A DNA stretch of 32,000 bases from the NCBI GenBank assembly GCA_963676105.1, contig OY781039.1, forward strand, positions 1,320,001 to 1,352,000, given 5' to 3'. Source of the stretch: Erysipelotrichaceae bacterium (lineage in GTDB: Bacteria > Bacillota_I > Bacilli_A > Erysipelotrichales > Erysipelotrichaceae). Below, piece by piece: positions 316-4,638 of this stretch (within the stretch, counting starts at the first letter, position 1; each line of letters begins with the position of its first letter). Position numbers and translations under genes: made by a program. The notes below the pieces were generated by a model that saw only the letters and a list, made by a program, of their open reading frames with translations, was not told the origin of the DNA and ran no database searches.

Positions 316-1686
316 ATGAATAGAGAGAATAGAATAGAACAAATAAAAAAAATTACTTCTAATGATGAGCTGAAATTTGGAAAAGAAGAAATTGTATGGG
401 AAGACTCACTGCAATCGATGGATGTTCGCAAAATTCCACTACAGTATTTGATTTACAACAAATATAATGGTCGTATTTTAACTCGAACTAAATCATTAGA
501 AGCACAAGGAAAAGTAATTGATGCAGAGACTGATACTGGGAAATTAATTATAGAAAAATTACTTTGGGAATCTAAACCGGAAAGAAACAAAACAACAAAA
601 AACGATTTAGAAAAATATGGTCAAAAAAGAATAGGAATTGTCACTGCTGATGGAATCATTATTGATGGTAACAGAAGAGCAATGTTACTAAATCAAATTG
701 ATAAATATGATTATTTCAAAGCAATAGTCTTACCTGTCAGATTAGATGAAAATCCTATTGAAATAGAAAAGCTTGAAACTTCTTATCAAATGGGTGAAGA
801 CGAAAAGCTTGGATACAATGCTAATGAAAAATATCTAAAAGCAAAAACCTTAAGGGAACGCGGGGTTCCAATCGACACAATAGCTAATTGGATGGGTGAA
901 TCAAAAAGTGAAATCGAAAAGTATTTACGTACTATGGAAATCATGGATGATTATCTCGACTTCTTTAGTTACAACAATATGTATACTCAACTAGATGGTC
1001 GTGAAGATTTATTTTTATCGGTCGAAAAATGGACGAATAATTTTTATGGTTCAAATTCCGCAAAGGCTTTTGATGGATATAGTGATAACGACGTTGATGA
1101 CCTAAAAGCAATTTGTTACGATTACATTAGATCTGATATAGATGGTAAAACTTTTAGAAATATTGCAGAAGGCAATCAATCATCACATGTTTTTGGAGAC
1201 CAAGAATTGTGGAGAGATTTTTCCGATAAACACTTTGAATTTATTCAAGAAATTAAAGATAGTGAATCAAAAATTGATTTAAATGTTCCAGATGTAGAGA
1301 AAAGTCTAAAAAGTAGAGATAACAAGTTCAAAGTAGACTCTTTAGACTATTTGCAAGAAAACCTTGATAATCAACGGAGTAGGCTTGCAAATAAAAAATA
1401 TAGAGATGAACCATCAAAATTGGTTTCTAAAGCACTAGATGCAATAGAAATTGCTTCTTCTAATAAAAACTTATCAAATCAAGAAACTGTTGATAAAATT
1501 GAAAAATTAAATACTATAACAACTAATCTACTTAAACAAAAGTCTATAACAAAATTACTTGATCATATTTACTCGCTATTAGATGGATTAGATTTTTCAG
1601 GTATTAATGATAATGATTTAGATGGAATTGAATCTAAATTAATATCAATACAAAAATTAGCATATAAATACTCGAAAGAAATCTAA
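316..1686 (+). CDS. ParB/Srx (ParB-like nuclease/NTPase) domain protein with a long uncharacterised C-terminal region
   Basis: RBS aaggggg lies upstream of the ATG. The N-terminal ~130 aa carry ParB-type boxes: VRKIPLQYLIYNKYNGRI and GIVTADGIIIDGNRRAMLL (DGxxR box). The remaining ~300 aa are helical/acidic with no motif I recognise. Confidence 0.6.
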   Translation: MNRENRIEQIKKITSNDELKFGKEEIVWEDSLQSMDVRKIPLQYLIYNKYNGRILTRTKSLEAQGKVIDAETDTGKLIIEKLLWESKPERNKTTKNDLEKYGQKRIGIVTADGIIIDGNRRAMLLNQIDKYDYFKAIVLPVRLDENPIEIEKLETSYQMGEDEKLGYNANEKYLKAKTLRERGVPIDTIANWMGESKSEIEKYLRTMEIMDDYLDFFSYNNMYTQLDGREDLFLSVEKWTNNFYGSNSAKAFDGYSDNDVDDLKAICYDYIRSDIDGKTFRNIAEGNQSSHVFGDQELWRDFSDKHFEFIQEIKDSESKIDLNVPDVEKSLKSRDNKFKVDSLDYLQENLDNQRSRLANKKYRDEPSKLVSKALDAIEIASSNKNLSNQETVDKIEKLNTITTNLLKQKSITKLLDHIYSLLDGLDFSGINDNDLDGIESKLISIQKLAYKYSKEI

Positions 1687-1688
1687 TA

Positions 1689-3671
1689 ATGATTGATTCA
1701 TTTTATACACTATCTTTAACAGAGGATTCATTTTTAAAAATTGAAGGTGAAACAGATATATTACTTAATAATCCTAGATTGAAGATTTCATTAGCTCGAT
1801 TGCACGCTAACTACGAAGATGATTACATTTTAATACCTGTTATCGATAATAATTCAGAGTATTTAATTAGAGAAATTTCACAATTGTTATTAAAGTTTAA
1901 TTACAAATCCAAGCTTGACTCTAGCATTGATGAAATATTAGATAATTTTAGAAACGAAATGGAAAATTTTGAAATTTTTTCTAAAAAAGCTTTGGATATC
2001 CGAAACAATGATTTTAGTAAATCAAAAGAAATTACCGAAGATTTTAGAGTATTTAAAAAAATTATTGATAATACTTTATATAGAACTTTATATAATATGC
2101 AATTACTTTCTGCTTTTCATATTGCGTTTGCTCAAAATGCATGTAATTTTGCAGTACCTGGTTCAGGTAAGACATCTATAGTTTATGCTGCTTTTTCGTA
2201 TTTAAAATCCCTGCCTAAAAATGATATAAAACATGTAGACAAAATATTAGTAGTAGGTCCACTTTCTTCATTTGCACCCTGGGAGAATGAATATTATGAG
2301 TGCTTTAATTATCAAGTTGATTCTCAACGATTATCTGGTGATTCTTCGATTTCGCTTATAGATAAAGAAAATCACCTTTACTCATCAACCCCAAAAACAT
2401 TAACGTTAGTTTCACACGCAGGAATGAATGTACTTCAAGATAAAATTATCGATTTTCTAAAACAAAATAAAACGCTTTTGGTAATAGATGAAGCCCATCG
2501 CATTAAAAATGTTGATGGTCAATGGGGTAAAGCTGCTATTGAAATATCAAAATACGCAAAATCTAGAGTTATTCTAACAGGGACGCCTATACCAAATGGT
2601 TACGAAGATATTTATAATTTATTTAAATTTATTTATCCATATAAATATAAAGAAATATTAAAAATTAGCTATGCACAATTAAAAAATCTAACGACCTCAA
2701 ATGCTGACATTAAAAATCCTAGAGTTTTTCAATTATATGAAAACATAAAACCATTTTTTTTGAGAATAAAAAAATCAGATTTATCACTACCACCAGTCAA
2801 CAACCAAAAAATTTATGTTGAAATGGATGATATACAGGAAAAAATTTATTCACGATTATTAGATACATACTCAGATTTCTATAAATCTGTTAATTCTGGA
2901 TCAAGGAACAGATATCAAGCAAGCGCAAAATTAATGAGACTTCGACAAGCTTCAATTAATCCAAAACTTCTTCTTAAACCGTTGTCAGAAAATCTAGAAT
3001 TTATGGGTGAGGATTTTAATGATGATCAATTAAATATTACGGCGTTTGAAGAAATACTTGAAGATAACGAAATCTTAAAGTTAATATTTTCTTATAAAGA
3101 TTTCATCCCCAGAAAATTTACTGAAGCATTGAGAATTTATAAAGATAAAGTAGAAACTATAAATGAGAAAATTATAATCTGGACAATTTTTATACAAAAT
3201 GCTGAGGAAATTAAAGATTATTTTGAGTCTAATAATATTGCCACTCGATTATTAATAGGAAGTGTTCCGCAATCAGAACGAGAAGCAATTATTGAAAAAT
3301 TTAACAACCCCAATAATCATGATTTTTCTGTAGTAATCGCTAACCCGTTTTCAGTATCTGAATCAATTTCACTGCACAAAGGTTGTCATAATGCTCTATA
3401 TTTAGAAAGAGATTATAATGCTTCAAATTTTATTCAATCCAAAGATAGAATTCATAGAGTAGGTCTTAATCCAGATACAATCACTAATTACTATTATTTG
3501 ATTACAAAGGATTCTGTTGATTATAGACTTGATAACAAGTTAGATATGAAAGTCGAACGCATGGAAAAGTTAATAAATAACGATATACCTCTTTTCGTTC
3601 GTTTAAATTCTTTCAATGAGGATGATATTGTTGATATCATATTAAGAGAGTATGCTGAACGATCTAAGTAA
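1689..3671 (+). CDS. SNF2-family (DEAD/DEAH-like) helicase/translocase
   Basis: Motif I AVPGSGKTS, motif II LLVIDEAHRIKN, motif III ILTGTPIPNG, motif VI QSKDRIHRVGL. The ATG is 3 nt after the upstream stop codon. Confidence 0.85.
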   Translation: MIDSFYTLSLTEDSFLKIEGETDILLNNPRLKISLARLHANYEDDYILIPVIDNNSEYLIREISQLLLKFNYKSKLDSSIDEILDNFRNEMENFEIFSKKALDIRNNDFSKSKEITEDFRVFKKIIDNTLYRTLYNMQLLSAFHIAFAQNACNFAVPGSGKTSIVYAAFSYLKSLPKNDIKHVDKILVVGPLSSFAPWENEYYECFNYQVDSQRLSGDSSISLIDKENHLYSSTPKTLTLVSHAGMNVLQDKIIDFLKQNKTLLVIDEAHRIKNVDGQWGKAAIEISKYAKSRVILTGTPIPNGYEDIYNLFKFIYPYKYKEILKISYAQLKNLTTSNADIKNPRVFQLYENIKPFFLRIKKSDLSLPPVNNQKIYVEMDDIQEKIYSRLLDTYSDFYKSVNSGSRNRYQASAKLMRLRQASINPKLLLKPLSENLEFMGEDFNDDQLNITAFEEILEDNEILKLIFSYKDFIPRKFTEALRIYKDKVETINEKIIIWTIFIQNAEEIKDYFESNNIATRLLIGSVPQSEREAIIEKFNNPNNHDFSVVIANPFSVSESISLHKGCHNALYLERDYNASNFIQSKDRIHRVGLNPDTITNYYYLITKDSVDYRLDNKLDMKVERMEKLINNDIPLFVRLNSFNEDDIVDIILREYAERSK

Positions 3672-4638
3672 ATTTTATTGCCTTGGAACAGTTCAATACT
3701 ACCAAGAACTGATATTACTAATAGATATTCATTCAGATTCAAATTGGGATATTGAAAATATTAACAGTTATTTTTATAATCGAAAATTTGATAATAAAGA
3801 CTATATTGATGGCGGTATTTATTTTTTATTATATATAGAGGCTATTATATTAAAAAATAATAAGTTATCGCTATCTAAAACATTTATTGAATTTAACAGC
3901 CAAAAACGAGATTTTAATTCTATATTAATATCTCTATTTTTGCGTAAAGTTTCTCAAGAAAAAAATGATTATTTAAAAATTTTTAATTCAGAAAACTTTC
4001 GCTTTAATATCGATTTCAATAAAATAGAGATTACAAAAAATGCATTTGGTTTAAAACATATGAATTTATTTGAAATTTTAACTGCTACTGATTTTCTAAT
4101 AGTAGAAGAAAATTTCAACAAAGAATTTATTTTCATCAATAATATATATAAAGAATCTTTCATCAAAATTATGGGTCTAAACATTAGAAAACATCACCTT
4201 AGCCCTGAAATGTTAGCTGAAATAAATAATTTGAAAGTTCAAAATGGTATTGTTGGCGAAGAGTTTGTACTAAAATATGAAAATAGCTTATTAGATTCTA
4301 GTCGGAAAGCTGAATGGGTTGCTATGTATGATTGTTCTGCTGGTTATGATATACTTTCCTACTATAGCTATGATTCTATAACTTTTGATAAATACATAGA
4401 AGTTAAAACTTACTCTGGTTCTCATCCTAGTTTTTATTGGACAAAAAATGAGATTAGAGAAGCTAAGATTAAAGGTGAGAAATATTTTTTATATTTAGTT
4501 AATATTAACAAAATATCAGATGAAAAATATATTCCATATATTATTAATAATCCAATCAACAACGTTCTTAATAACGATAATTGGTTTAAAGAAATCGACA
4601 CTTACTATATAACTTACCCACAAATTGTCGATAATTAA
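3652..4638 (+). CDS. DUF3883-like PD-(D/E)xK nuclease-fold protein (C-terminal domain); N-terminal domain unknown
   Basis: The C-terminus reads GEEFVLKYE...AGYDILSY...YIEVKTY...FYWTKNEIREA...KYFLYLV. This is the D...E-x-K layout typical of DUF3883/NO VEIN-C domains. The ATG overlaps the helicase 3' end by 20 nt. Confidence 0.55.
   Translation: MLNDLSKFYCLGTVQYYQELILLIDIHSDSNWDIENINSYFYNRKFDNKDYIDGGIYFLLYIEAIILKNNKLSLSKTFIEFNSQKRDFNSILISLFLRKVSQEKNDYLKIFNSENFRFNIDFNKIEITKNAFGLKHMNLFEILTATDFLIVEENFNKEFIFINNIYKESFIKIMGLNIRKHHLSPEMLAEINNLKVQNGIVGEEFVLKYENSLLDSSRKAEWVAMYDCSAGYDILSYYSYDSITFDKYIEVKTYSGSHPSFYWTKNEIREAKIKGEKYFLYLVNINKISDEKYIPYIINNPINNVLNNDNWFKEIDTYYITYPQIVDN

Follow-up and report, generated by a model that had tools for sequence, protein, structure and literature searches.

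A methyltransferase-linked cassette of ParB-fold, SNF2 and NOV_C nuclease genes in an Erysipelotrichaceae bacterium as a candidate restriction-modification-like defence system with architectural similarity to AbiR

Type III restriction-modification (R-M) systems and CglI/NgoAVII perform ATP-dependent restriction with separate motor and nuclease subunits, and LlaKR2I is a 5-methylcytosine (m5C) system of the Sau3AI type. AbiR of Lactococcus lactis plasmid pKR223, known from Twomey 2000 and Yang 2006 through a 2026 review (PMC13064643), consists of a sigma70-like protein of ~820 aa (AbiRa), a ParB-like protein (AbiRb) and a protein that combines an endonuclease-like N-terminal domain with Snf2 (AbiRc). 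The system is reported to need the C5 methylase M.LlaKR2I, to be toxic without it and to lower phage DNA replication (PMC13064643). In Hma, a further system with a helicase and a nuclease, the HmaA nuclease is needed for defence against T4 (PMC11232893, PMC12839542). Here we compare these systems with a locus in a 32 000 nt stretch of an Erysipelotrichaceae bacterium genome (GCA_963676105.1, contig OY781039.1, forward-strand positions 1 320 001 to 1 352 000), the whole of which is referred to below as the window. The locus comprises g1, encoding a ParB-fold protein, g2, encoding a SNF2-family ATPase, and g3, encoding an adaptor joined to a NOV_C nuclease. A first-pass annotation made from the sequence alone had described these genes as a trio resembling a DNA-targeting defence system, with no methyltransferase visible. 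Our analysis instead favours, with a probability of about 60 %, a four-gene, horizontally mobile, methylation-gated and nucleoside triphosphate (NTP)-driven R-M-like defence cassette, of which the window holds the distal three genes.

Relatives were collected by scanning one genome per species across 185 579 species, which gave 183 confirmed stretches with a g1 relative; of these, the top 80 were retained as loci, and synteny was counted over 83 related loci using tblastn of all cassette proteins. The fourth gene was recognised from the truncated open reading frame (ORF) at 2-265 (+), the last 87 codons of the first gene of the cassette. In BLASTP searches this ORF matched residues 464-550 of the methyltransferase (MTase) of locus L002, a JGI metagenome contig, at 40 % identity (E 4e-20), and the tail of the MTase of L001, a Moraniibacteria chromosome, at E 1e-5. 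By sequence similarity, 2-265 is thus the C-terminal tail of a C5 cytosine DNA MTase of ~555 aa. PF00145 spans residues 6-360 of the L001 and L002 enzymes, and 2-265 therefore belongs to a C-terminal extension of ~190 aa, which matches no Pfam family. Both of these loci display the order MTase (PF00145, ~555 aa), g1, g2, g3, and the order MTase, ParB-like, SNF2, effector was observed in ~65 of the 83 loci. A hidden Markov model (HMM) search identified a C5 MTase ORF in 77/83; five of the six loci lacking it are truncated at g1 or a short way upstream, leaving L041 as the only real exception. MTase motifs I, IV (PC), VI (ENV), VIII (QxRxR), IX and X were conserved in 47 canonical loci. The apparent lack of a methyltransferase was accordingly an artefact of the window edge, as an MTase precedes g1 in most relatives, and the earlier guess that the truncated gene might be a further component was borne out by its match to the MTase tail. 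Taken together, the tail at 2-265 and the upstream MTase in most relatives define a four-gene R-M-like cassette rather than a methylase-less trio. As expected of an R-M system, MTase and nuclease are encoded together, here as the MTase tail and a co-directional NOV_C gene with an intact D..E-x-K.

In two sequences the C-terminal part of the MTase (motif X plus extension) was fused in frame to a g1-like protein, namely P0092 (749 aa, ENA metagenome) and L082:7068-9287. These fusions may be genuine, or they may be assembly or frameshift artefacts; at sequence level they hint at physical contact between the MTase and g1. The MTase with its C-terminal extension may itself be a specificity subunit in the manner of Type III systems, which would fit the fusions but not the variants with ordinary short MTases.

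The three complete genes are located at 316-1686 (+; g1, 456 aa), 1689-3671 (+; g2, 660 aa) and 3652-4638 (+; g3, 328 aa), and these ORFs confirm the proposal of three coupled same-strand genes forming one module. The 20 nt overlap of g2 and g3 was as originally described, but the spacing of g1 and g2 measured 2 nt (1687-1688) and not 3 nt. The same tight junctions were present in ~75 related loci, and in almost every one g2 and the effector gene overlapped by 17 nt or more; these overlaps are upper bounds because the first start codon was taken as the start. All motifs quoted for the three proteins at first pass could be read directly from the translations. They were invariant or nearly so across 63-76 orthologues and are therefore under selection.

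The ParB-fold assignment of g1 was derived from structure prediction and motif conservation. The protein had no Pfam (E≤10), NCBIfam (E≤1) or PADLOC profile match, ParBc included, and its sequence profile returned only chance coiled-coil matches against PDB chains. An AlphaFold2 model, built with a 16-sequence alignment as input, had a predicted local distance difference test score (pLDDT) of 87 and a predicted template modelling score (pTM) of 0.76. The best 29 Foldseek PDB matches to this model were all ParB, Noc, KorB, Spo0J or pNOB8-type ParB N-domains (E 1e-4 to 5e-2, probability 1.0), with alignments of ~160-320 columns covering the N-domain and the helix-turn-helix (HTH); none of the 50 Foldseek matches listed was a DUF262, DndB or GmrSD structure. 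The motif IIDGNRR occupies residues 115-121, and its DGNRR portion (residues 117-121; 664-678, +) was invariant in 16/16 sequences and at least 95 % conserved in 74. Residues G118-N-R-R121, E154 and Q158 were invariant in the 16-sequence alignment. DGNRR corresponds to the arginine box of ParB (GERRxRA), and an hhalign comparison with Spo0J, although not significant (E 0.54), placed the two proteins in register, pairing DGNRR with GERRFRA, FKAIV with VPAIV and EIEKLETSYQ with EIALLENLQR, followed by the HTH. The hallmarks of ParB-type proteins, an N-domain fold, a GxRR arginine box and a downstream HTH, are thus present in g1 according to the Foldseek matches and the motif, and the ParB/Srx-like designation given to this gene holds at the level of fold only, on those matches and the invariant DGNRR. 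The protein consists of a predicted NTP-binding-type N-terminal domain, the HTH with a middle helical domain, and a variable helical C-terminal domain; its last ~135 residues are helical and poorly conserved. A single-sequence search recovered 1587 homologous proteins, and a profile search recovered 1567 representatives of 50 %-identity clusters at E≤1e-3, including 209 at E≤1e-30.

Profile searches confirmed g2 as a SNF2 protein (SNF2-rel_dom, E 1.2e-27; Helicase_C, E 8.5e-9). Its motifs GSGKT (residues 158-162), DEAH (267-270), LTGTP (296-300) and QSKDRIHRVG (583-592) were all located, and motifs I, II, III, V and VI were conserved across 76 orthologues. The ~150 aa N-terminal domain had no match in the profile libraries. 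The DUF3883-type nuclease call for g3 was likewise upheld, with NOV_C (PF13020, formerly DUF3883) matching residues 202-284 at E 4.5e-13. The nuclease domain at 4246-4551 (+) carries the sequence GYDI...IEVK, which contributes D233, E250 and K252, and its catalytic residues E203, D233 and E250-V-K252 were invariant among orthologues. In fold searches with an AlphaFold2 model of g3 (pLDDT 86.5), the C-terminal domain displayed weak matches to Hjc resolvases and the SPARDA nuclease, and the N-terminal domain weak, non-significant winged-helix matches (TFIIH p52, SelB).

The gene directly after the SNF2 gene was surveyed in 73 cases, with Pfam confirmation, and 72 of these could be classified, leaving one unclassified. 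NOV_C was the most common type (63 loci), followed by proteins with a C-terminal TIR domain (seven loci) and a MutH/Sau3AI-like restriction endonuclease (REase) followed by a C5 MTase (two loci). The TIR domain (TIR_2/SEFIR) took the place of NOV_C in L060:11440-12498, in L069-L073 at ~11230-12295 and in L077:7162-8199; these sister cassettes would thus couple a TIR effector to a methylase. Comparison of NOV_C-type and TIR-type proteins by hhalign revealed that their N-terminal ~185 residues are homologous (probability 99.2 %, E 6e-20), and g3 can therefore be described as an adaptor (residues 1-190; 3652-4221, +) with a swappable effector domain. The L060 protein, encoded in the complete Sulfurimonas sp. 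CS5 genome, has an N-terminus of the NOV_C clade joined to TIR, separately from the L069-L073/L077 clade. Such swapping of effectors on a kept adaptor is a pattern typical of defence systems. One Pseudothioglobus locus (L065:12349-13377) additionally encoded a second NOV_C protein, with a DUF3427 domain, directly after the regular g3.

The 80 kept loci displayed 39-53 % identity and were drawn from more than 10 phyla, spanning Bacteroidota, Patescibacteria, Campylobacterota, Proteobacteria, Acidobacteriota, Chloroflexota, Verrucomicrobiota, Firmicutes, Actinomycetota, Spirochaetota and Melainabacteria. The trio had been proposed for a check of co-occurrence and variable presence, and it showed both: synteny was kept in the ~65 loci noted above and the distribution was sporadic. 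Among 146 flanking ORFs no Pfam family occurred in more than four, and the flanks contained a few integrases, recombinases and Fic proteins together with scattered defence genes. The cassette looks self-contained and mobile, and it is found in variable contexts. These data support the original impression of a DNA-targeting defence system. A PADLOC run (PADLOC v2, 2023) had no model for the cassette and g1 has no model in Pfam, NCBIfam or PADLOC, so that annotation and defence-finding pipelines miss it.

Other arrangements place the ParB-like and SNF2 genes next to R-M genes of several kinds. In L. lactis plasmid pIBB109_AgSa_3 (L086:3002-11016), genes for a ParB-like protein (423 aa) and a SNF2 protein (620 aa) overlap the stop codon of the res gene of a Type III mod-res operon; this subfamily is common across Bacilli, and its members carry no annotation beyond 'hypothetical' or 'ParB N-terminal domain-containing'. 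The Firmicute loci L080, L083 and L084 comprise a BanI/DpnII-like REase, g1, g2, g3 (NOV_C) and a convergent C5 MTase. One of them, L084:1-6607, places a full cassette of this Firmicute type in the first 6.6 kb of the record of Streptococcus phage Javan191 (MK448700.1); either the cassette is prophage-borne or the predicted prophage boundary takes in a host island. Two Patescibacteria loci (L035:7298-14138 and L036:7337-14066) contain RadC, g1, g2, a MutH/Sau3AI-like REase and a C5 MTase, without g3. L018:12645-15273 has a C5 MTase and a MutH-like REase downstream of g1-g2-g3 and no upstream MTase.

The following mechanism would account for the gene content of the cassette. The MTase, whose motifs are intact in orthologues, would mark host DNA with m5C. 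The SNF2 motor and the ParB-fold protein, which has an HTH and a conserved GxRR/E..Q nucleotide pocket, would make up an invariant core that engages unmarked DNA. In this core the ParB-fold protein would probably act as an NTP-gated DNA clamp or loader, and the motor would then translocate using ATP. Docking through its N-terminal adaptor, g3 would bring its NOV_C PD-(D/E)xK domain to cut foreign DNA. Sister cassettes combine the adaptor with TIR or replace it with a MutH-type endonuclease, and the core can therefore be viewed as a sensor driving different effectors. Lack of the methylase should make the restriction genes toxic, as reported for AbiR.

Several points weigh against this interpretation. 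The cassette is known here from sequence and predicted folds, and the catalytic domain of the window's own MTase copy lies upstream of the window. The assignment of g1 to ParB draws on predicted fold and motif register, not on sequence statistics: hhalign of the g1 profile against Bacillus subtilis Spo0J was not significant (E 0.54), and NTP binding by g1 is likewise a prediction from fold. In an exploratory mirror-tree analysis the ParB and HTH domains of g1 co-varied with the target recognition domain (TRD) of the MTase no more than background (partial r ~0), whereas modest values (0.16-0.46) were obtained for g3 and the C-terminus of g1. The analysis, which we give little weight, singled out no subunit as the reader of the target site or methyl mark. 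Genes flanking the cassette showed only a weak association with defence islands. The TIR variants would need no DNA proximity, and a picture of translocation followed by cutting may be too simple. Finally, the proposed link to AbiR was made by architecture and by the structural description in a review, not by alignment to pKR223, and a homologue search seeded with an L. lactis plasmid ParB-like protein found no relative named AbiR in database sources.

The varied R-M neighbours of the pair could also be explained if g1-g2-g3 were an accessory module that boosts or regulates nearby R-M and has no self/non-self discrimination of its own. Such a module could act by removing or remodelling proteins on the DNA, by pairing distant sites, or by prolonging a cut into processive degradation, and it would be in keeping with a pair that adjoins Sau3AI/MutH-like (L035, L036), BanI/DpnII-like (L080, L083, L084) and Type III (L086) systems and with a g1 HTH that does not co-vary with the MTase TRD. 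We consider this account unlikely, given that g3 is the sole REase in the cassette throughout the canonical clade, window included, and that the swap to a TIR effector points to a self-contained sensor-effector system. AbiR, moreover, was reported to be toxic without its methylase, from which it follows that the ParB-SNF2 system itself attacks unmethylated DNA.

That same toxicity is a classical R-M phenotype, and it argues as well against an abortive infection (Abi) sensor cued by phage, whether by replication intermediates or by a phage protein, in which the methylase would damp basal autoimmunity and the nuclease or TIR domain would kill or arrest the infected cell. AbiR is classed as an Abi system and lowers phage DNA replication, and TIR effectors, typical of Abi, occupy the same slot at seven loci; yet the tight linkage to a C5 MTase (77/83) and the MTase-g1 fusions fit self-marking better than damping, and we regard a sensor of this kind as improbable. 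More improbable still, to the point of being remote, is a role outside defence, such as housekeeping, plasmid maintenance or repair of m5C deamination alongside the methylase, as Vsr acts with Dcm. ParB-fold proteins are classically partition proteins, repair enzymes occur among PD-(D/E)xK nucleases and many flanking genes are housekeeping genes, but neither a ParA partner nor a centromere-like context was seen, the effector slot holds TIR or REase in some loci, and relatives sit inside R-M operons (L086). The sporadic distribution also counts against such a role, with 183 confirmed stretches in a scan of 185 579 species representatives, many phyla, and 39-53 % identity among the 80 kept. The R-M-like cassette remains our preferred reading.

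Around the cassette, the window offered the following context. GC content was 27.4 % over 316-4638 versus 32.8 % over 6401-32000, and the lowest-GC 4.3 kb segment begins at 1451, so the description of this region as the most AT-rich part of the window holds. The same low-GC stretch includes, at 5868-7310 (-), genes for a 168 aa NUDIX hydrolase and for a transglutaminase-like lipoprotein of 307 aa. GC content was 27 % over 1-6400 versus 36-39 % over ~7500-14000, and because low GC continues through the genes at 5868-7310, the AT-rich island may reach beyond the cassette. No tRNA genes were found in the window, and no convincing promoter or terminator was found within 1-7600. A convergent gene pair at 4644-5688 (-) ends 5 nt past the g3 stop codon and had been noted as a possible second conflict-type element. 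It encodes a 108 aa protein with weak MazG/PRA-PH-like matches (E 1e-3) and a 243 aa CBS-domain protein that scored 16 bits against the NCBIfam model 'DS11 CBS-domain anti-phage', the cut-off of which is 260. Neither gene accompanied the cassette in any of the 83 loci (0/83), and the pair is thus not a companion of it.

A broader proposal, which we put forward tentatively and regard as rather doubtful, is that the pair of ParB-fold and SNF2 proteins serves broadly as a nucleotide-gated sensor for DNA that is foreign or unmethylated. As a modular immune chassis, the pair would plug into a dedicated C5 MTase or into Type II or Type III R-M and drive interchangeable effectors including TIR. It would constitute an unrecognised class of R-M-coupled defence with AbiR as one divergent representative. 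In the TIR variants, a missing methyl mark would then lead to an NAD-depleting or abortive response and not to DNA cleavage. The ParB-type subunit and the TIR variants are the most interesting features of the cassette: the former would bring a canonical ParB-type fold, possibly a CTP switch, into restriction machines, and the latter offer a natural way to ask if self/non-self discrimination based on methylation can drive a non-nuclease effector. An m5C-dependent barrier could also explain the poor transformability of Bacteroidota, Patescibacteria and Campylobacterota carriers.

Comparison with named systems identified partial likenesses. DISARM (DrmD), Zorya (ZorD) and Dpd (DpdE) share a SNF2-family ATPase with the cassette and provided the best PADLOC/NCBIfam matches of g2. 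These matches scored 25-58 bits against NCBIfam equivalog cut-offs of 500-1500, and the three systems were rejected on scores far under the cut-offs and on the lack of partner genes in the window. Menshen, ARMADA and Dnd-associated systems were rejected by architecture or score. DndB, GmrSD/BrxU, the DUF262 part of SspE and NsnA of Menshen (PMC12065111) resemble g1 in having a ParB/Srx NTP-binding-type domain with a DNA-binding domain, encoded upstream of an ATPase and an effector. The differences are that g1 carries DGNRR where DUF262 has DGxQR and that it is paired with a SNF2 ATPase in place of one of the ABC type; in addition, Pfam, NCBIfam and PADLOC searches matched g1 to neither a DUF262 nor a DndB profile. 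The analogy with DndB and GmrSD drawn at first pass stands in a weaker form than that with canonical ParB, KorB and Noc, as only ParB-type N-domain and HTH structures were among the fold matches.

Hma and the cassette both combine a SNF2 helicase, a NOV_C/DUF3883 PD-(D/E)xK nuclease and a DNA methyltransferase (PMC11232893, PMC12839542), and g3 weakly matched the C-terminus of HmaA in PADLOC (E 1.9e-4). Hma, however, fuses helicase and nuclease in a protein of ~1180 aa, whereas the cassette encodes them as separate genes; its MTase is of the DUF1156 type, in contrast to the C5 type (PF00145) of the cassette; and its third component is a DUF499 ATPase in place of a ParB-fold protein. No Hma model matched g1, and HmaA was absent among the 25 listed of the 26 PADLOC matches of g2. 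An assignment to Hma or to a system related to Type 1 BREX was rejected, there being no SNF2-NOV_C fusion and no DUF499 or DUF1156 gene. Type III R-M and CglI/NgoAVII resemble the cassette in having a self-marking MTase and an SF2 NTPase motor that couples site recognition to a nuclease, and for Type III there is also the g1-g2 relative joined onto a mod-res operon (L086). In the cassette, by contrast, the motor is Snf2-type and not Res- or DEAD-type, the nuclease is NOV_C and not the Res PD-(D/E)xK or PLD, a ParB-fold subunit is added, and m5C would be made by a monomer-type C5 MTase.

AbiR was among the closest named systems. A tblastn search of plasmids placed distant relatives of g1 on 66 of them, including 52 from Enterococcus. 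In E. faecalis pQZ076-2 (L085:3309-8984), a triad of genes encodes an 864 aa HTH protein resembling sigma factors, a g1-like protein of 405 aa and a SNF2 protein of 620 aa; near-identical copies of this triad are carried by at least 41 mobilizable or conjugative plasmids of E. faecalis. Insertion sequence (IS) remnants follow the pQZ076-2 triad, and no methylase adjoins it within the stretch examined. g1 aligned to the ParB-like protein of this plasmid at 26 % identity (E 4e-21), with the common motifs VIDGNRR and LE.S.Q.GE..K..YN, and g2 to its SNF2 protein at 30 % identity over 574 residues (E 5e-79). The first-pass remark that the trio could not be placed in a named system consequently stood insofar as it is absent from PADLOC v2, but not insofar as it implied the lack of a named relative, as pairs of AbiR architecture are homologous to it; AbiR-like proteins themselves had no matching PADLOC v2 model.

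The cassette differs from AbiR in that a sigma70-like AbiRa (~820-864 aa) is lacking from the window and the canonical loci, and neither the MTase C-terminal extension nor g3 displayed similarity to the sigma-like protein of L085. It also has its own ~555 aa MTase with a C-terminal extension, whereas AbiR borrows the methylase of a Type II R-M system, and its adaptor-NOV_C nuclease is encoded by a gene of its own, which has no counterpart in AbiR. Identity to the pair of AbiR architecture is low (26-30 %). Set against these differences, a ParB-fold protein is encoded directly upstream of a Snf2-family ATPase in both systems, as g1 and g2 are here; both are linked to a C5 methylase, functionally in AbiR and genomically in the cassette; the layouts of L035, L036 and L018 recall AbiR flanking the LlaKR2I R-M system; and g1 and g2 are homologous to the E. 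faecalis plasmid pair (26 and 30 % identity). In sum, the architecture suggests that the ParB-like and SNF2 core is distantly related to AbiR, a relationship that would place this lactococcal resistance system, known for 25 years, in a genomic and mechanistic frame.

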